A stretch of DNA of 64,000 nucleotides from Phoronis australis. Lineage: Eukaryota > Animalia > Phoronida. Below, piece after piece: positions 41,586 through 64,000 of the stretch. Each line of letters begins with the position of its first letter. Position 1 is the stretch's first letter. Under the pieces are notes generated by a model. It saw only the letters and a program-made list of their open reading frames with translations, had not been told where the DNA came from and made no database searches. The stretch is from the NCBI GenBank assembly GCA_002633005.1, contig NMRA01000574.1:155030-219029 (forward strand), read 5' to 3'. The position numbers and the translations under genes were made by a program.

Positions 41586-41738
41586 CTTGGTCCTGCGCAA
41601 CAGAAATGTTCATGGCTTCTTCCAACCTCTTTCAGGTTCCATGGGACTTGAGTTTGCTTGTTCCTGGATTAAATAATGGTTCATTTTTTTACAATCATGT
41701 CATGCCTCGGCTTAGTTTAGTAATTTGTCACATTTCAG

Positions 41739-42722: not shown

Positions 42723-42813
42723 GAGTTTGTACATATTCGAGCCCAGCTATGCTGTATTTGCTGGTCTAAAGTTTGGCAGATTTTCGTTTAAAGGCATGAA
42801 TCCAGAAGTTGAG
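42723..42813 (+). CDS. MPHOSPH6: MPHOSPH6 exon 3 (GRFSFKGMNPEVE)
   Basis: GR-x-SF-x-G-x-NPEVE motif. Confidence 0.93.
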
Positions 42814-43665
42814 GTGAGAGTTTACTTCCACACTTTCGAGAAGTACGGTGATCGCGTATCAAGCACACGCGTGTTAAGAAATATTTTGGCGTAATTTTCT
42901 TAAAGTGTATGCAATAAGTGCTTTATGTCAGTCTTGTATTGAAGAACAACACATCTCCACACAAGTTTTACCATGCAGGTACTTTTGACTAAGTTGTTGA
43001 GAGAATTGTGTATATTGTAATGAAAAGGTGATACTGGGTCAAAAATGGCAAATAAAATGTGAATGGAACAGTTTATTAAACCAATGAAAAACACGAAGTG
43101 TTAGTTAAGCTTATCCCAAGACTTTATGAAGCATTGTGAGCATTGAAGTAGTCCACATATGCCACTGTGCCAAAGGTAATAATCATTACGAAACAGTGCA
43201 TAAAATTGCTGTTAAAGTTGTAAATTACAGTTTGCCTTTAATGTTTGCCGTGCCATGTTTAATGCATTATTTTGGCAAAAAAGTGAATTTCTTGTATCTT
43301 AAAAGGATGTGAGAACGAAATGATTTCCTGTAAGCTCCTCAAATATCTTCCTACCTGCCACTTATATCCTCCATCATCTGAACAGAACGATTTTGCCTCA
43401 CAAGTCACGTAGTTAGTTTTCATGCAGTGCTGGTCAGCGTTTTGCAGAATGAGAACCTTGCGACAATGAAAGACCACCGAAAATTTCGCGAGATCACCAT
43501 TTGTTGTAAGTGAAGTACGTGACTACACTAGCTTTACTTGTGACTTTCTCACTTTTGTGGAACGCAGCCCTAGTGTTACGCAATTTACAGTTAACCTTTG
43601 AGACTGTAAAGTACGAAGAAAGCCTGTTGAAAACCATCATGACATTTATGTCTCTGTGATTTCAG

Positions 43666-43760
43666 AAACTAATGAAACAGTTTGACACAGAGCAGGAATT
43701 GGAGGAGTGTGAAGCGAGGGAGCAAGAGCAGGCTGTCTCTGAAGAGCAGATGGCTGAAAG
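43666..43760 (+). CDS. MPHOSPH6: MPHOSPH6 exon 4 (KLMKQF...VSEEQMAER)
   Basis: KLM and VS-x-E-x-MA motifs; phases fit. Confidence 0.92.
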
Positions 43761-44254
43761 GTATATAAATCTATTATAGTATAGTGACATCTGCAGTTAC
43801 CACTGTAGACATGTTAGTTAGACATCTGTGTACATGTCAAAATCAACTAATTCGGGGGATTTCATCTGCTGTTGTTTTTCAAATGCGCATCCTTAAGACT
43901 CGCGAAATGGCAGCGCACAGACAGTCGCAGATTTCACATTACACTCACATTCTTAAGACACACAAAATGGCCCGTCAGCTGATGGCAATCAGGTCATCAC
44001 ACAAAGGTCGAGAGTTTTCCAGTCCTTTGGAAACTTTGGGCGTATGATTATGCCGATCAAATTGGAACTGAACCTCATAGCTATGAAGGCTGTTGTGTTT
44101 TCTAATTTTGTTTAATTAGTGTTTAGCTTTTAGTTTTCAGAATATACTGGTATGTCAGCAGAAATTTAGTCAACCTTGAATTATGTCACCAATCCTAAAA
44201 GAAAAATCTTGGCCGCTTCGGAACTCTGTATTTGTCTCTCTCGCTTTTTTTTAG

Positions 44255-44387
44255 ATATGATAGTCTAATTGGGACAATCGGCAATAAATTTACAAAAAAG
44301 AGACAGCGTTCGTCTGCCAGTGAAGAGGATGTTGATGGCGGTAAATCAAGCAAGAAAAACAGGAAGTTCATGAAACCTGCCGACTGA
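44255..44387 (+). CDS. MPHOSPH6: MPHOSPH6 exon 5 (YDSLIGTIGNKF...FMKPAD*)
   Basis: GTIG-x-KF and F-x-KP-x-D stop; total CDS 480 nt, 159 aa. Confidence 0.93.
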
Positions 44388-45859
44388 GATGGTTGACTCT
44401 CTGGTTGTCTAAAGATAAAAGAAGAATGTGTCAAGTTCTAAAGATCTGTTGTGGCTCGGTAGGATCGTTATGGTGCTATAGTATTGTCATTCATGGTTTT
44501 TGTATTTGCAGCAATCGTACCAGGATGTTGTTATCACCTGTTCGATGTATTGGTACGATTCAAAATTGTTTCAAATTTCTGGGCAACTATTGAATAATCT
44601 TGCGGGAAGCAAGAACCTAATTGTTATTTGGTTTCGGCATTCAAAGCTATTTCTTTGCGGAGCTGGAACCGCCTTTGAGTCGGCGACCACTTGGTCTTGA
44701 CCAAAAAGTTGTAAATTTCGTGTGATTCATCGCATTTCTCTATGTGACAAATACAGCATTCTCCAGGGTAGATGTTTCAGGTGTCGGAAACCATTGTAGA
44801 ACCTTTGCGAATCTCAATGTCTACAGTCATGTAGAAGTCTTGTTACACCAAAAATTCTTTCATCCCGAAGCATTTACTGTTGAATTTAGGTGAAAGATCA
44901 TAGTTGACCTGATTAGCAAAAATAGAACCCAACATATCGTGCTGAACCATTTTACGAGTTACTAAAAGTATCATCATTGGAACCTTACATATATACCTTT
45001 TTTCTATGTTATGGTAGTTTACTATTGCTGCATCTATACACTGGATCACTAGTGTTTCCAAAGTGCCATCCATCCATCCTGAAGGTTTTCTTGCATGAGC
45101 ATTGTTGTTCTGGAGATTTTATGTTTTTCTACTTAAGTATGAACTGCGTGCAGAGTTACCATAGTTCATTTCCGTAGTAGTTACCTTATGCCAGTTATAT
45201 CTATTGCCATAACGAAGGCCATGTATTATTGGCGTTTATCGGCAGAAAATTTCTTGAAGAAATACAGATGCTTGGCGTGTGTCTTAAAATAAGGTTTAAT
45301 CAAGGTGCATCAAAAGTGTGATTTGAAACTAGATTTCACATTCTCTGTCTCATGAGCAAAGTTGCTGTTAGTCATACTACAACAATCCTGCCATTGTTTC
45401 TTTAAACATTCGATCTGAACAGGGAGTCTCTTGTACTCCTGGTGCTCCATCCTTTTATAGTTTGGTTGTCTATTTACTGTTCACCTTATGTCAAATAAGC
45501 GACGACACACAACACATGCGTCAGGTAAATAGTGAACCTCCAGGTTTCCTTACCAGTTGTACTGCCGGTTGTTTACATTCTGTGTTCTGATGGTGTCCTG
45601 TACCAAAACATGAAACCAGTCTGTACCCTTTCCAAAAAAAAAAAACATGACAATAAGGTGCAAGGCAAGGATGCTATTGAAAGTTTATTTATACACAATC
45701 CATGAGTTACTTACCAGCTATCCGTCTATTGATACTACATCCTTTGTCAAACTAGTAACATTGTCAGTGGATTGGATGAGCGACGTCATCCGTGTAGGCT
45801 GTGGGGACATCTATTGGTCATCTTGTCTTCTTGTTGTGCAGATATCTGGCAAGGCATAC

Positions 45860-46400
45860 TGACTGATGTGTCTGTTCATTCAGTCGGCAGCCATTGCCTC
45901 CATTTAAGGACAGGAAAATTTTCCTGTCCACACTCTGCTTTCGTTTTGAATGTGAAATGTTGTCGTATAGTAAAGACTTCTCGTCAAAAAACCCAAGACT
46001 GCACCGTTGTTGCTCTTCATGACGTGGCAGAGTCTTTCAAATGAAAAGTGGTTCACCGTTAGCCTCAGTGAATCTTCCTCAGGGACTTAGGCTTCAGATT
46101 GATTCTTGGGGTTTTCTTGCATTTTTTTTCCAAATTCATCAATCTCTTTTCTAAACTGCCTAGCACCTGGTAATTTTGAACCACCTTTCTCAGAAGACTG
46201 TCCAGATTATGGCGGGCTCCATCCCGGTTTCGTTGAAATGAAGGCAATAAAATTGGCGACGACAGACAACAAGGGGAAAACTGCGAAAGCTGGAACCTAT
46301 CCGATGACGTTGGAATATGCTTCCACAAACTAGAGTGTCGCACGAGAGCATATGCTGGATATGTTAGAAAGAATTGACTGAGCTTGTTCTGTTGTTTTAA
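45860..46400 (-). pseudogene. Frameshifted remnant of a DUF3987/YfjI-like P-loop ATPase
   Basis: Across frameshifts: PLLSVVANFI, EPAIIWTV, KGGSK, VNHFSFERLCHVMKSNNGAVLGFFDE, DRKIFLSLNGG; family recalled from memory. Confidence 0.55.
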
Positions 46401-47029
46401 TGGTGTTGGATGGTAACGTAGACACGGTGTATACTTCGAAAGATCGCAGTGGTGACACTTAATTGTGATTAGTTTGCTTAGGCTGTGCAAGCGGGTTTTA
46501 TGTAGGTACATAAGTCATGTGACAAGATGCAGATTTGGGCCACATAAACGTAGTCCAACTGTAAACTATTGATAAAAAGCACTAGATTTGAGCTCACGTT
46601 GACGAGTCAAAATCTTTGTCTCATTCCATCACATAGTTTCCTGCACTGAAGCTTGGATTCATTCGTCATATGTGAAGAACAACGTTTATGTAATCCCATT
46701 TTCTGTTAACTTGGAAAAACAGGAAAATCGTACGGCAGAAGCACATCCAGTCTAGATATGATGCAGTCAAGCGAATTGAACCCAAACATGTATGGTATTT
46801 ATAGTTGAGTTCATTTCTGATTATTTCCCATAAATCTTTGTCATCACTGGGAGAACACTGTTAGGTAGGATATCCTCATGGTTGTCGGGACTTGCTTCAG
46901 GAACTATTATAATGCCATCATTGTCCCCTGTCGATATTGGGGGATCAGGGTCGAAGCCAAAAATTGCTGGCTGTATTGAAGCCTTTGTACGCTCTAAATC
47001 AGAGTCAGAAAATATGGATCGATGCAGCT

Positions 47030-47627
47030 TGACTGCTACCTCATCTGCCTTTTTAGACGGCAATGGAAAAGTACGTGGAATTTAAAGAAGACATTTGCAA
47101 CATGACTGATGTAATCATATTTACCATCGTGCAACTGTCTCATGTCAGTCAAGTCGATCTGAATATGGTGAAGAGACTCCTCAAAGATGGGCTTTCAAGG
47201 GTGGACGTTCTTTCCCATTCTTGCAGGTAGGACTGGTCGCGCAGAAGGTCTGCACATATGTCTGTGGAATTCCTCAGAATTGCCAGTCGACGATGTCATT
47301 TACCTTTTTTGTAACCAGCATGACCCCCGTCTACCCTATAGATATTTTCCACGACTTAGTATACTCGACTTGCCAGAAGGACTGTAGAGGGCTCATCATA
47401 CTGGCAGTCATTTCCTTTCATCTTAGCAGGTTGCTCTTGGATTTTAGTTTGTGCTTTTCTTTTAGGTGACTTTTCTCTTATAGGTTGTTCTCTGTTGTTG
47501 CTGGCAAGACTGATACAGTGTTGTTTTTCTTGCAGTCGTCTCCTTTCATTTTCTGAGCAGGTGGCTCTTTGTTAATCTTAGGCTGCACTTTTCTTTCTGT
47601 CTTGTAAGGTTGTTCTCAGTTTTTACA
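47030..47627 (-). mobile_element. Ginger/KRBA2-like integrase fragment (H2C2 plus start of rve) with Ulp1 stub and linker
   Basis: DRGHAGYKK...CxxC, QIDLTDMRQLHDGKYDY, FPLPSKKADEVA; near-copy of 63690-64000. Confidence 0.75.
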
Positions 47628-47646
47628 CATGATGCCCTGTATTAGT

Positions 47647-48595
47647 CTAATCGTTCTTTTGAAAGACTTCCTTCATCAAAGGTGGATTTAGATTGGTTAA
47701 TGCAGCACAAGCACACCAGACGTGATTGGCAAAAGGCCTCAAACTACATGGAATGCTGGCAAGAATTTCAAATTGCTTTATTTGTTGGATGGCCCTTTCC
47801 ACGTGAATACGAGCCCGTGCAATGCTTCTTGTGAGTATGCACTGCTGCTCTGACAACTGACCATTGTTTAAAAATGGGGGGATGTTAAGTCCCACTCCAC
47901 TGGGCATAATATCATGAATGACAAAACCTTTATCTGCCATTACCATGTCGCCTACTGATAACTTGCTCAAAATACCTGTCTTTTGTGATTGCCTTATCGG
48001 ACATACAGCCACCATAGAGGTCACTAATAAAGGTCACAACACCATTTGGTGCCACTCCAACTAAGCCTTTGAAGGTGTTGGCACTTTTGTAGGAGCTCCA
48101 TGTTTGGTTCTGCTCCCTCATGTTCTTTGGTATTTTAATATAAATTTCTGTACAGTCAAGAACAATATGGGTATTACTGAATTTATTGAAAGCAGATGGC
48201 AAGAATTGTTTGTTTTTGTTAATAGAAGGCAACTTATTCATAAAAATTTGGCAAAGAATTTTGTCCAACACATGGATCCACGTAATTGCAATGTTCGTGA
48301 CAGTAGTCTTAGAGCACCCAAAACGGTAAGCCAGATCTAGGTGTTCAAGGTTGAGGCGAAGCTTCATGAGTGTCATCAATAACTGTTCCGACTTCCCTAT
48401 CTCGGTCACATTCCAACCATTCCAATAACTGAGAGCAAACCCCGAGCCCAACTCCAGCAGACACAAAAAGGTAGCATAGTTCTGCAGTCCAGTGTACATC
48501 GAGATCGTCACCCTTAATATTGTTAATGGAAAATGTTTTGGCAGCATAGTCCACTTTCTTCTTAAGTGCTGAAATTTCCCTATCCTCGTTGACAA
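47647..48595 (-). pseudogene. DDE_Tnp_4 (ISL2EU/HARBI-like) transposase, frameshifted
   Basis: HTH LMKLRLN...DLAYRFG; VLDCTE; SSYK...KGLVGVAPNG; YGG-x-x-SD; MADKGF; ARARIHVERAI. Confidence 0.9.
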
Positions 48596-49712
48596 AGGGG
48601 TTCAACACTGACTGGGAAATAGCTGGTGGCGTCGAAACTGAAGTAGAAGGAGTGGGTGGCTCCGGATCACTGTATAATGTTCCTTATTTCCAACCAAGGT
48701 AGGGTCATTTTCCTTCACACCAGCTGCACAAGCGATCTGAGGCGGTAGGTTTTCTGTCGAGACGTCTGTAAAACAAAAATTAAATTTGAAGTACATATTA
48801 CAAATCCTAAAACTAAGTGATTAGTGTCTATTTACACAAACGTTTATTTTATATTTACACTGACATAACATTTCATTCTTAACTCATTATAAGCATTTCC
48901 TGTGGGGAGTTCAGCAGGAAATGATGTTACTGTAATTTGGAACACCTTAAATTAGACAAAACTTTACATCTTTTGCAGTTTTTAAAATCACGTTTGTTGA
49001 CTTATTTTATCACACAGGAAGCATAATCTTTGGTTCACATGAGCAGATCGGCCAATAAAAAAGGTCAGAAATCAATTCATTGGTCTGACTGTATAGAAGT
49101 AAGGCTATATCAAATAGGAAAATCAGGCAGTTACATTGGCTGAGAACGAATTTTTAAAACATACATACAAATACATATAATAGGGAAAAAGGAAACAACT
49201 TTGCCTGAGAAAATAAACATGGCTGTAGGCTACAATACCTCTAGTTTATAAAAAGTAATATTGGGAATTTAGGGACAAAGTGAGATCTGTTAAAAAATAC
49301 ACATCTGTAAGTGCTGCATATCAAAATATATAAATGCCTCAACTTACATATTACATGTTTAGGGTGTGAGCTTCCAAGTTAACAAAATATGATCAACAAA
49401 ATACATACTATTGAAGGTAGAAACAGACCAGTACCATTGTGATAATAGGAAAAAATATGCATACCTTTAATCACATTTGTTTGATATGAGTACAAACTCT
49501 AAAATCAGCGCATATGTAAACAACGAAAACAACAACAACATCAAAATACTTATTATTGGAGGCAGAAACAGACCATTACAATTGTGATAGAAAAAAACCT
49601 TTATGCATATCTTTAATCACATTTGTTTTTGGCCAAAATATGCTTTTAATGTGCCCTCAACATCAGGATGCAATACAGTAGAATATAATATGATAAAGTA
49701 GTAAAACAATAA

Positions 49713-50524
49713 GGGCTGTTCCAGTAAAATCTGTGTGGGAGGGGGGGGACGGCAGTAGAAATAAAAATTCATGGGTGGTGGTCTTCAGAAAAAAACTCAA
49801 ATTATGGGTGGTCGTTCCCCTAAGAAGTGATGCATTAAAAATGGGTGGTATTTTTTGACCTGTTAATGTTGACAGGTTGGTTACTTCTGCTGTCCAAACT
49901 CAAAAGTCCAAACTCAAAAAAANNNNNNNNNNNNNNNNNNNNNNNNNNNNNNNNNNNNNNNNNNNNNNNNNNNNNNNNNNNNNNNNNNNNNNNNNNNNNN
50001 NNNNNNNNNNNNNNNNNNNNNNNNNNNNNNNNNNNNNNNNNNNNNNNNNNNNNNNNNNNNNNNNNNNNNNNNNNNNNNNNNNNNNNNNNNNNNNNNNNNN
50101 AATAAAAAGTATGAGGAGTTAGATAAACAAGTTCCAATATTCACTTGACATAGAAGTAGAAAAGAGTTTGTGGAGACAGTTTGAGATTCATAGATCCTTA
50201 TAATTGAAAAAATGTTCGTTGAAATTATAGACACATGGTGAACAGAGACACCTGGTGGATGCGAAAAGTATTGCTCACAGGCTACTTTAGTTTTTGACGA
50301 TATTGGACAAGACAACTAGTTCTTATCTGTCAATCATCTAAGTTCTTAACAGGTCCTCCTGGAGGCGATTTGTTTGCAAGTGTTGGATTTTATGTTTCAA
50401 CCTATTAAAAATAATTAAAAAATTATGGGTCATGGGTTGGAGAAATAAATGAAAAATATGGGTGGTGGGTACGAAATAAAAGTGCCTTCCCCCCCCTCCC
50501 ATACAGATTTTGCTGGAACAGCCC
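49713..50524. mobile_element. PIF/Harbinger-type MITE with TAA TSD (spans a gap)
   Basis: gggctgttccagtaaaatctgtgtgggagggggg / ccccctcccatacagattttgctggaacagccc with taa on both flanks. Confidence 0.8.
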
Positions 50525-52375
50525 TAATTAGATACAGTTAACAAAGTAGCAATTAAAACAGGTTGATGACGAAACTTTGACCAAGAGAACTGAAATAAAG
50601 AGATGATACTAAATAGTGAGAGCATGTACAATAATGAAAAATGACGTAATTAAGAAAGGTAAAGTGAAAGAATAGGTAAGTAAATTACAGCCACTTTTTA
50701 CTATTAAGTTTGACAGTATTAATTGATTTGGGCCGTTTAATTTCTGGGCTAAGAGAATTCCTTATTACAGCAGCAGCATAAGTAAGAGATCTCTCGCTGG
50801 TCTCGGGTTTTAATTTTTTTAAAAGAAACATTACCAGCAACAGAAGAAGGTGTTAAGTATACAGCTTGACTGCTGCTGAATTTGTGACCGTGATACGTTG
50901 GAGCCAAACAATTGACACACCTGTTACAGGCAACAGGCAGAGAGAAATTTACTTCTTACTATTTCAATACAAAGTGAAACTTCACATTGCATCTACTTAT
51001 ATCAACATCAGAATTACTTAATGATCACTGAAACTAAGTACACTAAGCATTAGCATGGCATGTGCAGAGTGTTCAATAAGTCTAAATATCAATGAAGTAT
51101 GTACACTGCACAATAATATACTTTTAAAAACCCCTTTTAATATTACGCAACACTTGTTTATGTTTAGATCAATTACAAAACAAACAGCAGCAACAAGTCA
51201 TTGGCCTGGTCCACAACATTAGAATGAACATGAGGGTCACACCAAAAAGAAATGTGCAAAGCGCGACATGAAAAATAAGCCTGGCAACTGCTTCACGAAA
51301 CTCAACTATTGATTATGTTTGTAAAAATAAAAGGAGAATTTAAGAGCATGTCAGAATCCCTATTCAAAACGATATCAAATGGCGCTTGGAGATGTCCCAC
51401 CCTACATCTCAGTGCAAAATATGAAAAAATCAGATTCCTTTATGAGATGTCATGCCAACGACATTGTGTGACATGCAGACAGACCTTTGTTTTTACCACA
51501 TCTCCCACATCATACTGTGGGGGACAAAAATTACACCAACGACATTGTGTAACATACAGACTGACTGCCAAAAAGTTGGACTTAAAACTGTAAATTTCAT
51601 AAAAAATGAATGAAAAATTCACATAGCTTTCATTTACAAAACTGAAGCAAAGTTAAAATAACGATGTTCATTTACCACTTCCCTATAGCACAGCTCAAAA
51701 CTAGCACCATGCGAACAGCAAGGCTCTGCCTACAACAGGCCTACATTTTGAGAACCGGTTTTCTCCATTGAACAAACGTTAATCAAACTGGTTCTCAGAA
51801 TTTTGCATGTTATCATAGGACTATTGCAGGGGATGCAGCAGTTAACCCAATGTGACAAGAACTGTGAACTGACGTTTGTACCTTTATGTCCTCCCATTGT
51901 ATCACTCCTAAGTCTACTTTAGCTACTTCTCACATAAAGACATTCACGTATTTTATAATCCTTGTTTGTTCTCCATCTCGTGCTAAGTACTTCACTGGGT
52001 CACCATCAACCAATGTTTTCTGCTGGGAGGACAATCTTGCTTTGGGACCTCTGCGTTGTTTCCCTTTGACAAATCCACCGACTGAAAAAAGGCAAACAAA
52101 GTTAGAATTCATAACACATACCCGACTTGCAGGGTGTAATGCATGTTGAAAACCCCATTCACTTTTCCTCAAAGGCAAGTATGAAACACAAAGTCTACAG
52201 AAGGAAAAATATATTAGTTAAAACAAATAAGACTGTAATTTTATATATTCTAATGTTAATGGTTTCATCACTTTTGAATGCAATTATTGAAGCCTATAAA
52301 AATCTATTCGGTGTAATCACACAAACACTCCACCCTCACAAAATTTCAATTTTTAGCTGGGCAGGGTTCGTCATG

Positions 52376-53045
52376 CAAGCTTGACCTGGATGGCAGTAAC
52401 TGCTACATTTGATGTTATTTTACTTAATCTGTTTCCCAGACATTTTGTCGATGGCTTTAACAAACAGGCAGCTTCCCTGATGGTGCACAGCTAAATCTCC
52501 AGCTCTGTAATTTTCCTTTAGAAGGCCAACTTTGATGCTAAGTTGATAATGCATGTCAACTGTTCCACTGACACTGATGACGCTGGCTACTAATTGCTTC
52601 ATCTCCATTGAAGCTCTGTCAAAATACGGAAGTGTGATATTTACGCAGTCGTTCTCAGCAAAGCGTGGAGAAATGAGCTTGTGTTTCTTGTTATAAGGTG
52701 TTGCCATTCGACTTGGCACTCAGCAGTGTTGACATTCAAGCTCTTTTCTTAACCCCTTTTCCCTATGTGTGAGGTTGAGTTTCTCAAAGGACTATGTCTG
52801 CTCTCCACTGTTTGAGATGTGGCTCCAGGAGGTTGTTGGCGAACTCTCGTCCATTGAATAGAACACGTGTGAGGCACCCATGTTCAACAGAAGTCTTTCC
52901 TGCAGCATGGCTGCTACCTCATCTGCTTTTTTGGACTGCAATGGAAAAAGTATGGAATTTAGAGAAGACATGAGCAACATGTGAGGTGTAATAATGTTCT
53001 TACTATCGGGCGGCTGCTTCATGTCAAACAGGTCGATCTGAATAC
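52376..53045 (-). mobile_element. Ginger/KRBA2-like integrase fragment and C-terminal domain
   Basis: FPLQSKKADEVAAML; DCVNITLPYFDRA...YQL...GLLKENYRAGDL. Confidence 0.75.
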
Positions 53046-55013
53046 TGCTGGGTATATTACGTTGTCAAATAAAGTAGACACTCCACGAACTACGCAGTTA
53101 AACAAACAGAACTGAACTGAACAACATAAAGATTATCGTCAATGCTTCTTTTTCAGTTTGAGGGTATTTCCTTTCTGTTTTACTCAGACTACGTGAAGCA
53201 AATTGAATTGGTCTTTCCTCACCATCTACAATATGTGACAATTGTGCACCTACACCTTCAGGAGATGCATATGTTGCTATGGTTTCTGGTAATTCTGAGT
53301 TAAAATGAACCAGAAATCCAGACTCTTTCAGTGCGTTGTTTAAAGCTTTTTAGCTTTGACTGTCCACTCAAATTTAGTGGATTTCTGCAACATTGCAGTC
53401 AAAAGGCGCAATAACCGTGGACATATCTCTTATGTAGGGTCTGTAGTAATTTAGAAGACCCAAATAGCTTCTTAGACCAGACACATCTTTTGGTAATGGT
53501 ATGGTCATAATCAAATCAACTTTTTTCTGAGATTCATGAACTCCAGTTTTGTCAATAACGTGGCCCAAATGCTCCACTGAATCCTTCATGAATTCATATT
53601 TGGACCTGCCTTGTAAATTATGTTTAGACTGCTTGACAAGTCCAACCACAGATCACATGACTGATCTTCGTACTGGACATTTACAAGAAACTTACCTACA
53701 GGTTTAACAATCTCACCCATGAAACACTCACTTAGATGGTTTCAATTCACTTTGGTTTTCAAACAGATTTACATACAAATCATATGGTATGATGGAGTCA
53801 TGGCTCCCAGTGTCATTTCCATCTCTAGATAATGACCACCAACATTTAGTGTCACATAGATAGCGTCACCTGTTCCCGTGTTATTTACGCTGTATTCTGT
53901 ATCGCTGTCCTCTCTGTCGTTTGTGTTGTCTCCAGCTTAGAGTACATGTCTTGTGCTAGGCTGTCTCCCACATGCAACTTTAATGTGCCCCTTTTTCTTA
54001 CACTTGCGACATGTTGCATTCTTGAACCAGCATTGGTCCGGATGGTGTGAGGGTTTGGCACATCTGTAGCACTCTGTGCTGGTTTTCCTCTTTGGTCCCG
54101 CCTTTGGTTTGCCAACTCTCCGGCTTTTCTGGTATCATTGTTTCTTTTTGGCCTTTACCACCTTCACATCACTGAAAGCTATTTCACTTATCATGGTTTT
54201 GTTTTCCATGAAAGTATTTTCTCTGGCCAAGGTGAATTGATAGTTTCATTAAACGTCAGCTCCTTGTCCTTTGACTTAGCGAGTAACTTTAGCGACATCT
54301 GCTCATTAGCACTTCCACTAATGAGTCTGTCCCTCAATTGCTCGTCCAGTTTATCACCAAACTTGCAGGTAAGATTGAGGTGTTTGAGCACGACTACAAA
54401 GTCCGTAATTGACTCCCCTCTCTTTTGGTGTCGTTTGATAAACTTTCTTCTTTCAGCAATTGTCAGTGGGGGTCCTGCCAAGTGTTTCGTCAGAGTTTCC
54501 TTTAACTCTACGTATGTTTTCTGGCTGGGTTTGGCTGGGCTGACCAGATCCCGTACAATTCCATAATACATCTTGCCAATGGAATGCAAGAACATTGCTG
54601 CCACTTGCTTCTTCGTTAAATCCGTTTCCTCATTCGCTTGTAGAAACAGTTCAAATCTTTCCAAGTAGCATTCCCACTCCTTGATACCATCATATTCGCT
54701 GGAAAACGGGGGCAGGTAACTTTGTGAGCACACAGTCATCTCGTCGCCACTGTTGTGTATCTTACTTTGTCAAATAAAGTAGACGCTCCACGAACTACGC
54801 AGTGAAATGAACAGAAATGAACTGAACATCAAACTGATTTATTCTACATATCATAGCTATATGTATACACAACTACATAACAACATATGATGCATTACCT
54901 ATGACACACTTCCTATACCTGAAATCGCATGACATAATACCAATTAAACTAATGAACTCATAATCAATAATAACCTACAGACATCCTGTTATTGTGTGAC
55001 TAAGTACACAACA
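53046..55013 (-). mobile_element. Internally deleted Gypsy LTR retrotransposon A (5' LTR 54751-55013, PBS, gag, protease/RT remnants, partial 3' LTR 53046-53130)
   Basis: LTR tgttgtgta...tacacaaca; PBS TGGCGACGAG; gag WECYLERFELFL...LRDRLISG; HLGHVID...LRSYLGLLNYY; imperfect 5-bp TSD aatac/actac in the host integrase. Confidence 0.88.
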
Positions 55014-55592
55014 ACTACGGTGATGAAACTCCTCAAAAATTGGCTTTAAGGGTGGGCGTTCTTTCTGTGGTTGACCCTTCTTGCAGGTAGGACAGGTTGC
55101 GCAGAAGGTCTGCAAATATGCCCATTGAATTCTCAGAATTGCCGGCGACAACATCTTTTACCTTTTTGTAACTGGCATGACCCCTGTCTACCTTATGGAT
55201 TTTTCCACAACTTTGTATTCGGCCCTTTCTGGAAGGACCCATCCCCAATAGTTGAAACGCAAACCCAATGGCTCTCATTCACATTAACAATCTGAATGAA
55301 ATCTACTTTCACCACTTGCCGTGTCGGACTGTTGTTAGACTGGGTTGTACAATCCTTCCACACCTTACGTTAAGTGCTTGCTTGATCACCTGTCAAGCAG
55401 CATCCATGTGGATGTCATTTAGCCAGGCATTTGATGAGAGGATGTCATCATACTGGCAGTCATTTCCTTTCATCTTGGCAGGTTGCTTTTGGATCTGAGT
55501 TAACGCTTTTCTTTTAGGTGGCTCTTCTCCAAAAGGTGAGAAATAATAATCTTGTCTCTTGTTGTATTCTGTGTTCTTATGTACTTTACCTG
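55014..55592 (-). mobile_element. Ginger-like unit: Ulp1 N-part joined to integrase H2C2
   Basis: AWLNDIHMDAA, NVNESHWVC, then IHKVDRGHASYKK. Confidence 0.75.
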
Positions 55593-55684
55593 GAACAAAG
55601 CGCACAATGTCCCCCCCCCCTGTGCCTTGGCTTTTCTGTGCAGGTGATGTGTTCTGGAATAGCAGTAACACCACTTAATCTCAC

Positions 55685-56580
55685 AGTCACATACGCTGTA
55701 TATGTAGTATCGGCCGATTTGTACATTTTGCCATTGGGATGGGCATCCAATTGGGCAATAGCCGTAGGTCCCAAAAATGATCGTAGTAGCATATTTTTTG
55801 TTGATGGGTGAGGTGGTTGCCTTCCTTTTGGTTAGCGTCCGTTAATACGAAGTAGTCCTCCAGCATTTCAAGGAACTGTTCGAACTTGAGAGATGGAGTG
55901 TCCAGTCCAGTGGGCCAGTAAGTTGGCGGTACAGGCACGTGAAAATGTTGAGCCTTTATGAAGTTCTGCTTTATCCTCGTCGCCAATTGTTGTGTAGGTG
56001 GTAACACAGTAAATTGGTATAACACGTATATTGCTTGTTGAAAAGATAACTACATATAATACGGAAATACTAGTAAATAGGTCTATACACTACGGAGTCC
56101 TTTGTCACACTGACTGTAGAATCTAAGTGAGTAATCTCTGAGACTCGTGGCTTCATTGTTCGTGGTTGGCACACCTTCTAATGGTGACACACCAACCTCC
56201 CCCCGCTCACAAGCGTTAGTGCGGAAATCGAGTTGGTGGCAGTCCTCTGTTGGAGCGAAACGATCGCCGAGGCACGTCAAAATGGTCATGGTAACATGCG
56301 AAGTTGTAGCAGGTGTCGGGTGCCTCTTCGAAAACCTTTCGCATGCGGCGGGCATTCCAGAGCTGACCGTCTGAAAGGCGATACGTCCAGTTGCCAATGC
56401 AGTCGACAACTTTGAGAGGCGTTGACCATGGTGACGATCCCTTGGGAGTATGCGGTTTCTTCACGCGTACGGAATCGCCAGTTTTGTAGGGTCCTCTGTG
56501 TGTCACTGGAGTAGGTTTTGGGCGAGTGGACTCGCGCTTCTCCTCAGAGAAGACTGGAACGCGCTCGACCCTGCCTTACT
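55685..56580 (-). mobile_element. Gypsy B fragment in permuted order: integrase C-terminus, PPT, single LTR (55988-56194), PBS, gag N-terminus
   Basis: GDSVRVKK...TYRLSDGQLWNA; PPT gcggggggagg; LTR tg...caaca; PBS TGGCGACGAGGA; gag-like FEQFLEMLEDYF. Confidence 0.8.
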
Positions 56581-56699
56581 CTTGCAAAATACTGCTTACA
56601 CCTTTCCTAAAGTGTTCAGAGTCAGTGTGACTGCATATCGTTCTTTACCAAAGCTGGCACTGATGATTCCTTTTCAGCTAAATTCGTCACCCATTTAAA

Positions 56700-57790
56700 T
56701 TATCACATTCTATGCATGGCCACATTTAAATAAGTTGTACCCAGACACTCAGTGCTTTTCATCACCACCAACTCTGAGATGAGCGTGAATCTTTGCCTCG
56801 CTAAAAAGTGGAGGGTAACCAGACAAATACTTTGTGTCTATCAAAAAATCACTTTGTAGTAGACCTTTTAAACATGGTGGAGCATAAAAAAGAAGCCAGG
56901 TTTACAATTCAGTTCCCTTGATTAAGGTATTTGTTTCTTAATCACTTAGTAGTCTTCTGGAAGACAAATATTCTGTAGACGTTGTGAAATTAATGTTAAG
57001 TGCTTCCCAATAAAAAGGGTTTTCCACTATGAGTTTTTGAAAACCAAAAAGACATCAACTGTTTTGTGACACCCATGAGGACACCGTGTATGTAATCTGG
57101 AACAATGCCGCTAACTAAATCGAACCATGGCATAGAAGCAAGGCCAGTCAGTCCAATAATACCTTCGCAGCGCATTCCAGAAATTGCTGCTGTAGGTCTT
57201 TTAACATACTTAATGTTGTCCTTCCAAAGGGATTGTGCCTAGCATGACCCTTGCCTACTGTCATTGCTTCTTCTTCACACGTTGAACACCCAAAAGTACC
57301 ATTGTGCATGGTTTTTTAAGCACATACCCTTTCGCCTGCAAATTAAGTGTGCCGCACAATATCGTAAGCTGTACGGTAAAAGGTTCCTTAAAAGGTGGTG
57401 GAAATATTACCACCCCATGTTTTGTCAACCTGCACATCTGTTCCTCAAATGACCACAGGTAGTTTAAATATGGGGGGTTGCTCTTACCGTGCCAGATGCC
57501 CGCAAGAATAATATTATTTCGGGCAAATGTTGCTTAGACTGGCATCTGATTAGTGGCTTAAGATATGGGTCAAAGTTTGACTTTAGATGAACTGTAAATT
57601 GAAATACCTTGTATGTTAAAAAAATTGCACTGATGGTATTGACAGAAGCCAAAATTTGACCCTACTATAACTCTTCTAGATAAAGTCGGCCATCTATCAT
57701 ATCTCGTGTTACACCCTCTCATTTAAACACATTGCTTTAGATTTAGTTTCCTGAATATTTGTCCAGCAGTCAGGCTTTTCTAAAATTTGT
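56700..57790 (-). pseudogene. CACTA/EnSpm-like transposase remnant
   Basis: Across stops: GISIYSSSKVKL*PI, NIILAGIWHGKSNP, HNGTFGCSTC, DYIHGVLMGVTKQLMSFWF. Confidence 0.75.
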
Positions 57791-57797
57791 GACAACT

Positions 57798-59017
57798 TGT
57801 GTTCAACATCAGACAATAAAAATGAAGCATTGGGTTGCCCGATTGGCTTTACTTGGGCTGTGGGTTTATATTGCACAAAGATAAAACCCGAGGTGGTTCG
57901 TATGATGTATTAAAAGCTTCTGATGTGATAGTATAAAAATCTAACATATAGCATGCAAGTGAACCTATTCGACCAATCAGAATGTGCGCCAAATATAAAA
58001 CTAACCAATGGGGAAGATTGGCTAGGGCTGGGATGATTTGTAAATATATGTCAAGAGGTAGCAAGTAATAAGTTTAAACTGAACATATACAGGAAATACC
58101 TAAGGTAAATATATGTCAAGAGGTAACAATTAATAACTTGAACTGAACATGTACAGGAAGTACCTAAGCTAAATAAACCAAGAAAACCAGTCACAAACAC
58201 ATTCCAATATTCTCCCCGGGCGCGAAAAATGTTGAACATAATAGTAAATGGTCGAAACCAGAAATAAATCAGGCAAACATTAAATATTAAGTCAATACGG
58301 AAATAAAACAGCAAACAAATGTGAAACAAGACAATAAGAATAGTAAACAAGATATATATGTCACAATCGAGTAAGTTATATAGAGTCCGTATCATGCAGT
58401 TTATGCTGACGTTTCCAAAGGGTAAAGTTTCTTAACGGGTCTACTGATTAGTCCGTTTTTCGTTTTGAGAACCACAGAACGCACATGTCCATCGTTACCG
58501 CGATTGATTTTTTCCACTTTGCCCATATTCCACATGACACGTGGGGTATTTTCGTCATGTATAAGAACGATGTCACCACAACTTATGTTCAAGGATTGGC
58601 AACCAGATTTGATAGTGTGATACTCGCGAAGAGATGTAAGATATTCGGATTTCCATCGCCGAGTAAAGGTTGGAACGTCGTACGTATCATTGCTCTACTG
58701 CTGATGCCCCAAAATCTGGGTCGTCGATGTCATCATCATCCACTGAATTGAACGGTAAACAACTGAGGCGGCACCCATGCAATAAGTGAGCCGGAGTAAG
58801 CGAATCGGGGTCCTGTATGTCACTAGACAGAAATGTGATTGGTCTGTCGTTAAGAAGACACTCACATTCAACAAGCAGAGTGCGCATCTTCTCAAAGTGA
58901 AGTTTCGATCGTCCAAGTATTTTCTTAATCGTCGTTTTGGTAATGCCTATCAGTCTTTCCCAGAAACCACCATACCATGGGGCACGCTGAGGGATGAATT
59001 TCCATTGCACGCGATGG
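57798..59017 (-). mobile_element. BEL/Pao element 1, 3' part (integrase end, PPT, 3' LTR ~57798-58209)
   Basis: WKFIPQRAPWYGGFWERLIG, LTPAHLLHG, RPVKKLYPLE; PPT cccggggagaa. Confidence 0.88.
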
Positions 59018-59612
59018 TGTGTGGAAATTCTGGCTATGTAGTATAGGGGGTCGCCGTGTGAGTTGCCTCGCAGTGTCGGTAGATACAAAGTGGTGATAAC
59101 TAGACAGTTCAGCAGTGAACCTGTCTAAATAACAAGTCGTGTCGTTGTGCTGACTAAATGGCAACTGATTTTATTCTACACTCCAAGTCATTTATATACA
59201 CAATCATTGATAAAATAACTATGACACGTGGGCTAATACTAAGGAAATGACTAAACTATAATACAAAACAATTCTTATAAATGATTCGATGTCACAAGGA
59301 AGCTAGACCAAATAAGGCAGATTGTTACGTAACCAATTCCTGAGTTGAAGGAACTCTGTAGTAAACAAACTGTCTGTGAGGTATGGCTGGACATTTGAGC
59401 TGAGACACATCTGGTTCCGGTCAGTATGAATCAGCTGATGGGCGAAGTGTCAAAACAAATCACGGAAATCCGTGACACTCCCCGGGTGGCCGAAAAAATG
59501 GCAAAGTACTAAAGAAAAATACATGTCTAGATACTAAAACAAACAATCAACAGAAAACGGTAACTATAACTAACTGGAATACAAATATGCATGTCTCACT
59601 AAATAGATGTAA

Positions 59613-60604
59613 TTAGTCCTTAAAACAATTTCGTATCTTCTGTATGGCTTGCCTTGCTGCATTCCGTACTGGTCGGGAAGTTGCAGTGGTTTGGGTCTCC
59701 ATCTCCAGGGCGAGTGGTCGGTCTCCATCGTCAGTGGCGTCATTTACCTCCAGTGGATAAAGCTTGGCTAGTGGACGATTCGTAACTCTGTTGCCGGTTC
59801 TCACTGTTGCTGAACGCACAAGGCCATCAGCACCGAAGTGTAACTGTATGACCTTGGCTAAGGGCCACGAAACACGTTTTTCATCATCCATGTGAATGAT
59901 GACAACATCACCGACTTGAATTCTGTTGCATTGCTGGTTGTTCCCTTTCGTCTGTGCGTGTCTTTCTCGAAGTACCGGCAGATACTCATGTTTCCAGCGT
60001 GTCCAGAAATTGCGAAATACGTTGTCTAGGTGTTTGAAGCGTCTGCTAAGTTGATCTGGGGTCACTGTGTAATCAGGGTCGAGGATTTCCTCGTCTGTGA
60101 CATAGTTGTGCGGCAGTGGAGAGATGATTCGTCCATGCAGTAGATGAGATGGGGTTATAGGTTGTAGATCGTCCGCATCATTTGACATGTATGTGAGTGG
60201 CCTGTTGTTGATAATCATCTCTGCTTCTGTTAGGATGGTTGAGAGTTCATCGTAGGATACACATGCGCGGCCAAGTACCTTCTTGATGACTGATTTTGTA
60301 ACACCAATGAGTCTTTCGTAGAACCCTCCAAACCACGGGGCTCGTTTCGGTATAAATGACCACTTTATCTGGTTAGAGGCAAGGTATGTTTGGACTGGAA
60401 CACTGTTGATCAACTTTCCGACGGTGTCAGCGGCGGAGAGAAATGTCGTCGCATTGTCCGAGATGATGTGGCTGGGCATGGAACGTCGGCTTGTAAATCG
60501 GCGAAAGGCTTGTAAGAAGGTGTGTGCAGTCATGTCAGGCACTAACTCCAAGTGAACGGCTCTGGTGACAGCGCAGGTGAATAAACAGACATAACACTTG
60601 TTCT
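59613..60604 (-). CDS. BEL/Pao integrase (open frame running into the gap)
   Basis: CLFTCAVTRAVHLELV, SDNATTF, APWFGGFYERL, RPLAKLYPLE. Confidence 0.88.
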
Positions 60605-60711
60605 NNNNNNNNNNNNNNNNNNNNNNNNNNNNNNNNNNNNNNNNNNNNNNNNNNNNNNNNNNNNNNNNNNNNNNNNNNNNNNNNNNNNNNNNNNNNNNNN
60701 NNNNNNNNNNN

Positions 60712-60984
60712 ATTCTGGAGATCGCTGAACAGGCAGTATGTTTCCATGAGGAAGTCGTCGGTGTCCCCCAGGTAATTGAGTTTTTCGGCGTCGTCTGGCA
60801 TGAGTTCTAAAAGTTCTTTCTGGTAATCTTCATATAGCTTTCGTTGTTGTGCGATGACGCCTAGACGGTTGTCTAGCGTTTTTAGGTCCTTGGCTTGGAG
60901 CGATTGCATCATGTCGGTGACTTCATCAATGTAGCGTTCTATGTGCTTTCTGGCTTGTTGTTGGCGTTTCTGGGCGAGATCCAT
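60712..60984 (-). CDS. BEL/Pao gag N-terminus (partial)
   Basis: ATG shortly downstream of the PBS; helical ORF running into the gap. Confidence 0.65.
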
Positions 60985-61453
60985 GCTTCGTTGTAGTTAA
61001 TGGTCGTCGTGATCGTCTTTGAGACTGTAGTAGTTTGCAGTTGGCGTTGTGTCGTCGCTGGGCTGGCAGCAGGCTGGTTGAGTCAAGCTGGTTGGTTCTC
61101 GGTTCTTCTCCTCTGTTGGCCACGGCACCAGAAAATGTGGGGAAATTCTGGCTATGTAGTATAGGGGTTCGCCGTGTGAGTTGCCTCGCAGTGTCGGTAA
61201 ATACAAAGTGGTGATAACTAGACAGTTCAGCAGTGAACCTGTCTAAATAACAAGCCGTGTCGTTGTGCTGACAAAATGGCAACTGATTTTATTCTGCACT
61301 CCAAGTCATTTATATACACAATCATTGACAAATAACCATGACACATGGGCTAATACTAAGGAAATGACTAACTATAACACAAACAATTCTTATAAATGAT
61401 TCCACTTCACAAGGAAGCTAGACTAAATAAGGCAGATTGTTACGTAACCAATT

Positions 61454-62399
61454 CGTTAAGTGCTTGCTTGATCACCTGTCAAACAGCATCAATGTGGATG
61501 TCATTTAGCCAGGCATTTGATGGGAGGATGTCATCATACTAGCAGTCATTTTCTTTCATCTTGGCAGGTTGCCCTTGGATCTTAGTTTGTGCTTTTCCTT
61601 TAGGTGGCTCTTCTCCAAGAGGTGAGAAATAATAATCTATAATCTTGTTGTATTCTGTGTTCTTAATGTACTTTACCTGTAACAGTGCCACGTGTCGCAG
61701 TTGTTGCACTGTATCTTGAAGCCTTCATTAGGTTTTCTACTAGAACAGAAATTTTTCTTTTCTACTGGCACAAACACTTTCTTGCGTCACCTGCTGTTGT
61801 TCTCTGATAGAAAAGGTGTTACTTTTCCATTCTTTAGGCAATAATCACAAGATGTTGACGCATTCCCTTCAGCTCATAAGTCAGATTATGCTCATACTCT
61901 TCAAATACCAGTGATGTTGCAAAAGCAGTGGCACATACACCACGGCTAGAGCTGTCATTTTGGCGATTCATAGCGACAACATTGAGCGACTTTGTTGTCC
62001 TTGGCATGCAGCAGGTCTGTAACCACCTTCAAGAGGTCTTAACCTAGTTTCAGCATCATGCTGTCATAAACAGATGCTGTAGAGGGCTCATCCCCAACAG
62101 CAGAAATGCATACTCAATGGCTATCATTCACATTAAGAATCTGAATGAAGTCTTCTTTCGCCACTGTCCACGTCAGACTCTTTTGGTAGACAGGGTTGTA
62201 CAATCTTTCCACACTCTGATGTGCTTGCCATTTCAGTCGACAAGCGGCATCAATGTGGATGTCATTTAGCCAGGCATTGGATGGGACGATGGCATCATAC
62301 TGGCAGTCATTTCCTTTCATCTTAGCAGGTGCTTTTGGTTTGTGGTTTTCTTTTAGGTGGCTCTTATAGGTTGTTCTCTGTTGTTGTTGGCAAGACTGA
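61454..62399 (-). mobile_element. Ginger-like unit: degenerate Ulp1/C48-type protease domain plus duplicated linker
   Basis: WLNDIHIDAA, FIQILNVNDSH*VC, YDS, QNDSSSRGVCATAFATSL, MRQHL...CLKNGKVTPF. Confidence 0.75.
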
Positions 62400-62724
62400 T
62401 GTTGAAATTTGTGAGCGAGAAAACCACTTTCTTTGACGAAAGTTTATTGAGCAAAATAAAAACAAAACATTACAAAGATGGCTGGCGGACGCTGAACGCT
62501 TTCCTGCTTCTTGTTGTGAAGTCCTTCTTTTCTTTCTCCGAAGCACTGTCCGCTTGTGGATTTTCTGTGCCATCAATGAATCCAAACAAATTTTGTTGAG
62601 GTGAATACCTAACTGTTGGTTGGTGAGATATACCACAAGATTTCAAGAAATCAATGAATTAATTTGATACATATTCTCCTCCCCCATCACTGCGTAACGT
62701 GCCTATCTTACACCAACAGCAACA
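62400..62724 (-). mobile_element. 325-bp scrambled Ty1/Copia remnant (integrase piece, gag piece, LTR end)
   Basis: KIGTLRSDGGGEYVSN*FIDFLKSCGISHQPTVRYSPQQN, then LFGFIDGTENP...RSRKAF, then AATAAA...tcaaca. Confidence 0.75.
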
Positions 62725-64000
62725 TCAGTGTGGATGTCATTTAGCCAGGCATTTGATGGGACGGTGGCATCATTACTGGCAGTCATTTCCTTTCATTTGA
62801 GCTGGTTGCTTTTGGATCTTAGTTTGTGCATATTTTACTCATAGGGGGCGCTTCTCTTTTAGGCTTATCTCTGTTGTTGCTAGACTGTAGCGCTGGCTGT
62901 TGTTTTTCTTGCAGTCGTCTCCTTTCATTTTCTTAGCAGGTGGCTCTTTGTTGATCTTAGGTTGCTCTTTTCTCTCTGTCTTGTAAGGTTGTTCCCTGTT
63001 TTTACAAGCTTGACCTGGATGGCAGGAACTGCTACATTCTGGGGAGATTGCTCTCCAATCACAGAAGCAGTTGATGATGGCCCCTCACTCTCATGGGATG
63101 ATGTCTCCTGATTAGCTGGTGATGGTCCTGAACTGGCAAGCCGTGGCGTGCTACAACTCTGAAAAGATTGCTATTCACCACAGAAGGAGGCGATGATGGC
63201 CTCTTCACTATCACAGGATGATTTTGACTCCTGTGTAGCCGATGGTATTGGAGGTTTTTGTTACTTGATGGTGTCATGTGCAGGTAATTCCTCTTCATCC
63301 AAAACAGCTGGCCCAGCACCTTGAAAAGGGCTACCCTTGGGGCTTGATCCCATTGACCACTTAATAAGGCAGTTCATTTGTTGTTGTGCTCCAAGTTGTG
63401 TTCATTTTGTACATGTTTCTGAGCAGGTACATAGACCAAGGAAACAATAGTTTCTGTAAATCAACTCCTTCCTCAGCCTTCATTTTTTCCAGCTTCTCTT
63501 GTACCACACGTCTTCCACTCTCCACTACTCCTTGAGATTGTGAATGATTTGGTCGGCCACTAGCAAATTATACGTCTGCTCTCAATTGTTTGAGAAGTGA
63601 CTTCAGGAAGTTGTTGACGAACTTTTGTCCATTATCTGAATAGAAAATGCGTGGGTGACCCGTGTACAGCAGAAATCTCTCCTGCAGCTTGACTGCTGCT
63701 TCATCTGCCTTTTTGGACGGCAATGGAAAAAGTATGTGGAATTTAAAGAAGACATTCGCAACATGACTGATGTAATCATATTTACCATCGTGCAACTGTC
63801 TCATGTCAGTCAAGTCGATCTGAATACAGTGAAGAAACTCCTTAAAGATGGGTTTTCAAGGGTGGACGTTCTTTCCCTTTCTTGTAGGTAGGACAGGTCA
63901 CGCAGAAGGTCTGCACATATGTCTGTGGAATTCCCCAGAATTGCCAGACGACGATGTCATTCACCTTTTTTGTAACCGGCATGACCCCCGTCTACCCTAT
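62725..64000 (-). mobile_element. Ginger/KRBA2-like unit: H2C2, rve integrase, linker and Ulp1 stub; continues past the right edge
   Basis: GHAGYKK...CVTC, QIDLTDM, FYSDNGQKFVN, GRPNHSQSQGVVE; contains stops and frameshifts. Confidence 0.85.

Follow-up and report, generated by a model that had tools for sequence, protein, structure and literature searches.

Results

Genes at the locus

The window, a stretch of 64,000 nucleotides from Phoronis australis, holds two host genes and, behind the second of them, an 18-kb pile of broken mobile elements at 45,860-64,000 (Table 1). The leftward gene encodes a Tudor domain, a long low-complexity exon, a DEAD helicase domain, two further Tudor domains and ARM repeats, in that order (Pfam). 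Its top phmmer matches, from Haliotis, Mizuhopecten, Branchiostoma and others, are named TDRD12, and judged from its sequence it is an ordinary, general invertebrate TDRD12 orthologue. The Tudor-DEAD-Tudor architecture is common to the family, that is, to invertebrate TDRD12 and to fly Yb, SoYb and BoYb. ARM repeats were rejected as a peculiarity of the Phoronis protein, since 8 of the 10 homologues compared carry them, and mollusc, echinoderm, hemichordate, nemertean and amphioxus homologues have them in common with it.

Among the fly members, Yb is specific to follicle cells, and a review table pairs mouse Tdrd12 with BoYb (PMC4269861). The 20 hits that were named include no fly protein, the homologue tree took in no fly sequence, and nothing found suggests that the gene is Drosophila Yb, the follicle-cell-restricted, soma-specific paralogue. 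A word-index homologue search with a TDRD12 exon gave no match. The first exon was looked for in the window and not located; the 3' end probably extends beyond the window start.

MPHOSPH6 is intact, with five coding exons (38313-38360, 41739-41851, 42723-42813, 43666-43760 and 44255-44387) that encode 159 aa and a stop at 44,387. The two genes are arranged head-to-head, and the spacer from the first recognised TDRD12 exon (33,162) to the MPHOSPH6 start codon (38,313) is at most 5.2 kb long and full of repeats. Their introns within the window are a few kb at most. TDRD12 is oriented away from the pile, with no less than 12.7 kb between them. Rfam and ARAGORN gave no match anywhere in the window.

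Table 1. Features of the window and the evidence for each
Feature	Position	Strand	Evidence and remarks
TDRD12 orthologue (predicted)	897..33162	-	Pfam; phmmer best hits; collinear tblastn exons from 33,148 to 1,014
MPHOSPH6	38313..44387	+	Pfam MPP6 on exons 2 and 3; GT-AG sites; open frame
MPHOSPH6 3' UTR/spacer	44388..45820	+	Variant hexamers only; few first-mate-minus reads (RNA runs X1 and X2)
Decayed coding remnant, presumably DUF3987-like	45821..46430	-	Sequence motifs only
Ginger1-like integrase piece and linker/protease start	47023..47627	-	94% identical to 63,683-64,000; tblastn
Harbinger/ISL2EU-type transposase remnant, frameshifted	47647..48750	-	DDE_Tnp_4 (E 3e-18) and HTH_Tnp_4 (E 2e-15) at 47,650-48,601 (HMM); ISL2EU not distinguished from PIF/Harbinger
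High-copy MITE, non-coding, no orientation	49710..50524	.	Terminal inverted repeats, TTA/TAA flanks; assembly gap 49,923-50,100
Thin layer of reads, inferred plus-strand (antisense to TEs)	50671..64000	+	Candidate locus of origin only
Ginger1-like integrase, 3' side of Gypsy A insertion	52376..53043	-	79.5% to 63,571-63,827
Gypsy A, internally deleted: LTR, PBS, gag, pol scraps, truncated 3' LTR	53044..55013	-	RT_RNaseH; RT_RNaseH_2 at 53,101-53,349, E 2e-19 (HMM)
Ginger1-like pieces: integrase zinc finger; linker/protease start	55014..55597	-	Sequence comparison
Gypsy B, permuted: integrase end, PPT, one LTR, PBS, gag start	55690..56600	-	PPT 56,204, PBS 55,985
CACTA/EnSpm-like transposase remnant	56700..57680	-	DUF1258 at 57,264-57,683, E 0.003, under the curated cut-off; sequence motifs
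BEL 1: integrase 3' half, PPT, 3' LTR	57860..59017	-	DUF5641 at 58,404-58,694 (HMM); PPT 58,220
BEL 2: truncated 5' LTR, PBS, gag start, integrase, PPT, 3' LTR	59018..61454	-	rve and DUF5641 at 59,616-60,602 (HMM); assembly gap 60,605-60,711
Ginger1-like C-terminal protease/PHD-like pieces, repeated linker	61455..62443	-	Domain order as in PMC2836005
Copia-like scrap: integrase core, then gag start	62444..62725	-	Copia-type rve stub at 62,590-62,733, E 7e-5; sequence motifs
Ginger1-like integrase core and linker, runs off window	62726..64000	-	rve at 63,571-63,855, E 1e-5; Atlas rve clusters at 0.93

Composition and orientation of the transposon pile

The first-pass annotation had described the DNA from about 1.5 kb after the MPHOSPH6 stop as mostly nested, broken mobile elements, and this description held. 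The first remnant lies about 1.45 kb past the stop, which places the beginning of the pile closely behind a gene on the strand of the proposed precursor, as in a read-through cluster. With element borders drawn by eye, about 79% of 45,860-64,000 (14,350 of 18,141 bases) falls within elements. Among the 163 ORF pieces of 1-45 kb scanned with Pfam there was no TE domain. DNA transposons make up about 53% of the assigned DNA, and Gypsy elements 2.9 of 14.35 kb (20%). Gypsy A is nested in a Ginger-like integrase, both flanks being contiguous in an uninterrupted copy, and the 3' LTR of BEL 2 abuts the integrase of BEL 1. Insertions of different ages share one orientation, with 78 of 91 positions identical between the LTR stubs of Gypsy A (86%) and 305 of 319 between the LTRs of BEL 2 (96%).

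Ginger1 elements have a Gypsy-like integrase, C-terminal Ulp1/OTU and PHD domains, TIRs and a CCGG/CCGT target duplication (PMC2836005). In the pile the rve domain was found, and the protease and PHD pieces were recognised by eye only, the HMM scan and a PDB search with the protease-like piece both being blank. A word-index homologue search with the Ginger-like integrase gave no match. The labels Copia, CACTA and Ginger1 are in part provisional, motif-based assignments. A viral scan with the integrase end of Gypsy B was blank, and comparison of the Gypsy A and Gypsy B gag regions found no relation (E 0.4). The metagenome scan gave a single weak locus (48% over 29 aa), which was set aside.

The strand bias of the pile is real: transposable elements are dense, lie in one orientation and are all antisense to the upstream MPHOSPH6. 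Of the nine elements previously assigned to the minus strand, seven have an HMM match there and an eighth, Gypsy B, which has none, is oriented by its PPT and PBS; the DUF3987-like remnant was not confirmed, with no support from Pfam, the word-index homologue search or Atlas. Seven of 30 minus-strand frames matched TE families in Pfam; among 30 plus-strand stop-to-X frames over 45,551-63,999, none matched a TE family or contained a host domain. By the motif definitions assumed here, four PBS-like motifs lie on the minus strand, three of them directly behind an LTR end, and two on the plus strand, neither at an LTR end and both within minus-strand elements. The PPT-like motifs number four on the minus strand (three at LTR starts) and zero on the plus strand. 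N-free ORFs of at least 100 aa are 4 on the plus versus 15 on the minus strand in the pile, and 10 versus 9 in 1-33,200. Since Pfam missed two of the nine minus-strand remnants, a very decayed plus-strand remnant may lie in the unassigned 21%.

One Ginger-like segment is present five times at 87-96% identity. Tandem duplication was rejected as a full explanation of the bias, because the repeats are confined to Ginger-like pieces. One duplicated unit is insufficient, since both DNA transposons and LTR elements, of at least six superfamilies, are affected.

The odds of 1/256 given before (2 x 0.5^9) assume independence and were too optimistic, because nesting correlates orientations. Independence with the eight verified elements gives 1/128. 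For nested human elements a same-direction bias of up to about 2-2.6:1 is described in PMC2836564, and a 2:1 bias raises P to 0.04-0.06 (about 0.04 for nine elements), in models for this locus alone. The pile could be an ordinary transposon nest, made by same-direction landing bias and local copying of the Ginger-like segment, with reads that come from other genomic copies. The observed nesting, the five Ginger-like copies and the P of about 0.04 fit such a nest. However, the duplication is confined to a family that had already been counted once, and the common direction is antisense to the adjacent gene.

RNA reads over the pile

Reads from three RNA runs (X1-X3) were aligned to 44,001-64,000 only; X4, a contig run presumed to be RNA, was left out of the expression analysis. 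Their plus-strand polarity is inferred from the dUTP convention, for which the control amounts to one or two reads because the last-exon bin of MPHOSPH6 is barely covered (0.23, 0.45 and 0). Every read in 44,001-47,335 is in the first-mate-minus direction. About 12 and 8 reads of X1 and X2 and zero of X3 fall in 44,001-49,336, and all three runs have zero in 47,336-48,669. The first-mate-minus direction occupies 20, 20 and 18 of the 20 bins of 50,671-64,000 and is the only one in the CACTA bin (56,674-57,340) in all three runs. The opposite direction prevails in X1 and X2 over 50,671-60,675 (0.58 and 0.60), and in 60,676-64,000 the first-mate-minus share is 0.97, 0.81 and 0.95 (about 87, 71 and 61 reads).

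Away from the MITE, read depth is generally 0-4x, with peaks of up to about 10x; in the MITE it is about 90-340 per bin, in both directions and with diverse loose ends. Most aligned reads are 95-99% alike and about half continue into unlike sequence, shares that are dominated by the MITE. Many reads therefore derive from other copies; many carry fixed differences or loose ends, in line with an ordinary nest. Active copies should, however, yield sense reads, whereas 81-97% of the distal reads lie in what would be the antisense direction, and we consider an ordinary nest rather unlikely. Two groups of six molecules in X1, one starting at 61,679 and the other ending at 61,262, were rejected as proof of junction-spanning RNA, since they may be duplicates of one fragment.

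The read layer is thin, even and one-sided, as pre-mRNA would be. The pile might thus be a long intron or an unstable read-through tail of a plus-strand transcript, from which sense insertions are purged and which gives few or no piRNAs. An antisense bias of LTR elements and LINEs within genes is presented as established in PMC3088655, and the stretch may continue beyond 64,000, where the window ends. Against this, MPHOSPH6 is complete, the plus-strand frames hold no host domain, the introns of both host genes are short, and no canonical GT-AG splice joint is among the nine joints listed. Mouse read-through genes without piRNAs lack an excess of downstream antisense elements in the account of PMC11615739, and P is 0.015 if LTR elements are assumed to have a 75% bias and DNA elements no bias. 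An intron or tail is, in our judgement, quite unlikely.

No AATAAA or ATTAAA occurs for 1.86 kb past the MPHOSPH6 stop, until 46,246 (chance of none, 0.17). Within the pile, the plus strand holds more AATAAA than expected (10 versus 5.6 and 8 versus 4.2), an excess that is awkward for one long precursor.

Discussion

We lean towards reading the pile as a spiralian candidate for a known kind of locus, the uni-strand piRNA cluster of the read-through type. Pol II would transcribe the plus strand, either by running through a weak poly(A) site of MPHOSPH6 or from a start inside the pile. Processing of this RNA would yield phased piRNAs antisense to Ginger, Harbinger-type, CACTA, Gypsy, BEL and Copia elements, and selection would retain antisense insertions and remove sense ones. 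The first-pass annotation had proposed a flamenco-like uni-strand cluster. The anatomy fits a uni-strand cluster, with thin support from RNA, but flamenco is a less close model than a read-through cluster, because DNA transposons account for roughly half of the assigned bases and Gypsy for only some 20%, instead of the Gypsy/ERV enrichment of flamenco.

The flamenco and flam-like loci of Drosophila share with the pile a strong one-strand orientation, which is predictive of real fly clusters (van Lopik et al. 2023, PMC10643416). As described there, flam-syntenic clusters of species beyond the melanogaster subgroup measure 227-1,085 kb and are Gypsy-enriched and somatic, whereas the Phoronis pile spans at least 18 kb. 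Flamenco has its own promoter. Mouse piC-DoG (PMC11615739), in the data reported for it, resembles the pile in dense antisense fragments just behind a same-strand gene whose coding sequence is untouched. It differs in that read-through RNA and piRNAs were shown and the cargo is L1/ERV, whereas the Phoronis cluster is a candidate only. The read-through core clusters of mosquitoes, as presented by Qu et al. (10.1101/2022.08.22.504762), are likewise one-directional, lie within a few kb of the end of the upstream gene and have an RNA-seq signal that rises towards the far end. Unlike the pile, the Aedes clusters trap non-retroviral viral elements, and read-through was validated there by RT-PCR and knockdown. 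Molluscan piRNA clusters, spiralian as well, are described as enriched for Gypsy/BEL and DNA transposons (Jehn et al. 2018, PMC6128900); they were defined from small RNA.

Nothing new in mechanism is shown yet, and the locus fits a known kind of cluster. Confirmation of piRNAs at this locus would extend antisense read-through clusters from mammals and mosquitoes, the groups in which they have been shown to date, to a spiralian lineage, and such traps would then hold DNA transposons as much as retroelements. Among the literature matches listed there was no piRNA-cluster study in brachiopods, phoronids or Lingula.

The link drawn earlier between a Yb-family processing factor, an exosome cofactor and the pile found no support, the gene being a general TDRD12 orthologue that faces away. 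Yb acts in cytoplasmic bodies (PMC4269861), and the mosquito core clusters are reported to depend on a Yb-named Tudor protein in trans (10.1101/2022.08.22.504762). TDRD12 would likewise act on pile RNA in trans, in the cytoplasm, and its position beside the pile is for this reason most likely that of a chance neighbour. The three parts could instead form a co-regulated anti-transposon module, in which a shared germline promoter or enhancer drives the factor leftward and a read-through precursor rightward, as the close head-to-head genes and a pile antisense to the rightward transcript would allow. Such a module is very improbable in our view: the first TDRD12 exon was not found in the window, the intergenic spacer is repeat-filled, and the literature search gave no paper tying TDRD12 to MPHOSPH6, only unrelated gene lists. 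In known read-through clusters, moreover, the identity of the upstream gene is reported to be neither conserved nor needed (10.1101/2022.08.22.504762). A chance neighbour is expected occasionally under rough assumptions of about 35 pathway genes in 20,000 and tens to hundreds of clusters per genome. This module would belong to a spiralian that has received little study and whose grouping with the brachiopod Lingula is weak.

Orientation and composition of the pile

A Pfam scan of 186 stop-free frames of at least 45 aa (44,846-64,000, both strands) found transposon domains on the minus strand only. In a strand-neutral scan, with each stop codon replaced by X so that frames stayed open throughout, no plus frame of 30 matched a TE family. 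Matches came from 7 of the 30 minus frames: DDE_Tnp_4 in two frames, rve in two (one of them with two stretches), DUF5641 in two stretches, RNase H and, weakly, DUF1258. Narrower scans also recovered an rve stub of Copia type (7e-5) and gave 0.003 for DUF1258. We also used assumed motif patterns for the LTR-element landmarks PBS and PPT. On the minus strand, three PBS motifs immediately follow an LTR end and three PPT motifs fall at the start of one; neither of two PBS-like matches on the plus strand lay at an LTR end. Pfam domains and LTR landmarks agree, and between them give eight elements a tool-based orientation, minus in every case. The first-pass annotation had counted nine; its one-way orientation holds, and the ninth element, open mainly on the minus strand and presumably DUF3987-like from its motifs, was named by none of four tools. 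The onset of the pile is abrupt: across 1-45 kb, 163 ORF pieces, almost all at least 60 aa long, yielded no TE domain in a scan less sensitive than that of the pile.

With borders drawn by eye, about 79% of the pile is assignable to elements: Ginger-like 4.1 kb (Ginger1 as defined in PMC2836005), BEL 3.6 kb, Gypsy 2.9 kb, Harbinger/ISL2EU-type 1.1 kb, CACTA-like 1.0 kb, MITE 0.8 kb, DUF3987-like 0.6 kb and Copia 0.3 kb. Self-comparison gave a minimum of seven Ginger-like pieces, and they share one direction. Gypsy A is nested in the Ginger-like integrase, because both its flanks match adjoining parts of an uninterrupted copy. The 3' LTR of BEL 2 abuts the BEL 1 integrase; at the other end of the element, the truncated 5' LTR runs into a Ginger-like piece, so that deletions came after insertion. 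LTR pairs are 86% (78/91) and 96% (305/319) identical; the direction was thus kept over insertions of differing age. The permuted order in Gypsy B and in the Copia scrap suggests an origin in tandem copies, or in circle junctions that deletion then trimmed.

Features of the window
Feature	Position	Strand	Remark
TDRD12, collinear exons	33,148 to 1,014	minus	
Foldback element, TDRD12 intron	13103-13994		890 bp; entire length is its own inverted repeat (79%); centre, 59-bp unit about 6 times in alternating direction
Minisatellite, TDRD12 intron	17678-18331		about 20 copies of 31-34-bp unit
TDRD12 exon used as query	20,953-21,150	minus	
Low-complexity TDRD12 exon	26108-28060		about 600 codons with polyglutamine run, between first Tudor and helicase; no Pfam match
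Minisatellite, TDRD12 intron	31262-31762		11 copies of 46-bp unit
Non-coding repeat, 700 bp	35970-36669; 39667-40381		copies 80% alike; between the genes and in MPHOSPH6 intron 1
Element with inverted ends	near 36,705 and 37,810		spacer
MPHOSPH6	38,313-44,387	plus	5 GT-AG exons, 159 aa, no internal stop
BEL 1-like fragment, MPHOSPH6 intron 1	40958-41109	plus	79% like BEL 1 LTR region (57,900-58,054)
Harbinger-type MITE	49710-50524		48-base skip at 50,165-50,214
A-rich, unassigned	51730-52090	minus	exon-like, nearly open frame with splice acceptor; no Pfam match in three frames; may be a later exon of a DNA transposon
Gypsy B	55690-56600	minus	integrase ahead of gag
Copia scrap	62444-62725	minus	integrase ahead of gag
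Uninterrupted Ginger-like copy	63,571-64,000	minus	

The chance of 1/256 proposed for nine elements (2 x 0.5^9) is arithmetically right for independent events and becomes 1/128 for eight. However, nested insertions need not be independent. PMC2836564 describes a same-direction bias of up to about 2-2.6-fold for some pairs of nested human insertions, and a 2:1 bias raises the chance to 0.04-0.06, so the layout is suggestive, not decisive. One Ginger-like linker/protease segment is present five times at 87-96% identity, which points to duplication in place or to recurrent insertion; the remaining families are single. Both this segment and the human nesting bias speak for a plain transposon nest, which we nevertheless regard as rather unlikely.

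RNA across the pile

Three raw paired RNA runs under the same species label (X1, X2 and X3; about 18-19% of each) and one contig set were compared with 44,001-64,000 at 95% likeness. The majority of matching reads fall on the MITE and derive from other copies; outside it, depth is mostly 0-4x. The MITE is abundant in all runs in both directions, and its 48-base skip, probably a shorter subfamily, recurs in 28-34 reads per run.

At 60,676-64,000, the first mate is on the minus strand in 97, 81 and 95% of depth (about 87, 71 and 61 reads), and this direction was found in 20, 20 and 18 of 20 bins in 50,671-64,000. It is the only direction at 44,001-47,335, with a handful of reads in X1 and X2 and zero in X3. 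Such one-sidedness indicates stranded libraries. By the usual convention, and from the one or two reads that fall in the last-exon bin of MPHOSPH6, these reads mark plus-strand RNA, antisense to the elements.

Counted against a clean precursor are the absence of reads in all runs at 47,336-48,669, the scarce coverage of MPHOSPH6 itself, plus-strand AATAAA at about twice expectation in 46-60 kb, and the middle part, where opposite-direction reads are the majority in X1 and X2 and peak on BEL 1 with fixed differences from the window, the pattern expected of other copies. So is the lack of a canonical intron among nine listed joints, which also argues against the pile being an intron; that reading, or a non-productive tail, is unlikely. 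Antisense bias of intronic insertions is established for LTR elements and LINEs (PMC3088655). No canonical poly(A) signal lies in the 1.86 kb past the MPHOSPH6 stop, as would occur by chance alone in 17%.

We consider an antisense trap the most likely reading, with a little better than even confidence. Plus-strand transcription, by MPHOSPH6 read-through or from an internal start, would yield transcripts antisense to at least six TE superfamilies, and these would be processed into piRNAs. Of the proposed uni-strand piRNA cluster, the layout and a thin one-sided RNA layer are observed, and precursor, piRNAs and selection are what we infer.

Comparison with known systems

In mouse, 269 of the 1,000 top pre-pachytene clusters lie downstream of genes, and the most productive are rich in antisense TEs, whereas genes generally have equal sense and antisense TE content downstream (PMC11615739). 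Most core clusters of mosquitoes are described as read-through products whose upstream-gene identity is not conserved between distant species (10.1101/2022.08.22.504762), and piRNAs arise from antisense 3' UTR insertions independently of host-gene identity (PMC13226689). We regard the locus, which resembles uni-strand piRNA clusters of the read-through type, as a further candidate member of a class already described. The likeness to flamenco extends to the one-strand TE layout; fly flam-like clusters are far larger and Gypsy-enriched (PMC10643416), and in the pile Gypsy makes up about 20% of the assigned sequence. DNA transposons alongside Gypsy and BEL are common to the pile and molluscan clusters (PMC6128900).

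The neighbouring host genes

The window has a GC content of about 39% and five N runs. The TDRD12 exon query gave 62 representatives at E <=0.001. The 20 looked up were TDRD12 or unnamed RNA helicases, from molluscs, echinoderms, hemichordates, amphioxus, a nemertean, an annelid, a brachiopod and a priapulid. Tudor and DEAD domains were present in all ten homologues scanned and ARM repeats in eight; five of the ten align to collinear exons, and the single stop among 24 aligned pieces is at the intron-side tail of one piece. From these names, domains, exons and the position of the stop, the gene is by sequence an ordinary TDRD12 orthologue. A search for its first exon was negative. The brachiopod Lingula is the top blastp match (429 bits vs 344 for the next) and adjoins the window in a tree of its TDRD12 pieces with 18 named invertebrate homologues and 1,079 columns, weakly (UFBoot 69). 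On this basis the DNA is taken to be spiralian and possibly from a lophophorate.

A functional link of the pile to a TDRD12/Yb-type factor had been proposed and is not borne out. TDRD12 and MPHOSPH6 are head-to-head, and TDRD12 is transcribed away from the pile, at least 12.7 kb off. We hold a TDRD12-coupled module very improbable and the adjacency probably a coincidence. Yb acts in cytoplasmic bodies of follicle cells only (PMC4269861). A literature search on TDRD12 with MPHOSPH6 listed two unrelated gene-list papers and none tying the two genes. The spacer between them is filled with further repeats, and the BEL 1-like fragment in MPHOSPH6 intron 1 runs opposite to the pile, in sense to its host gene.
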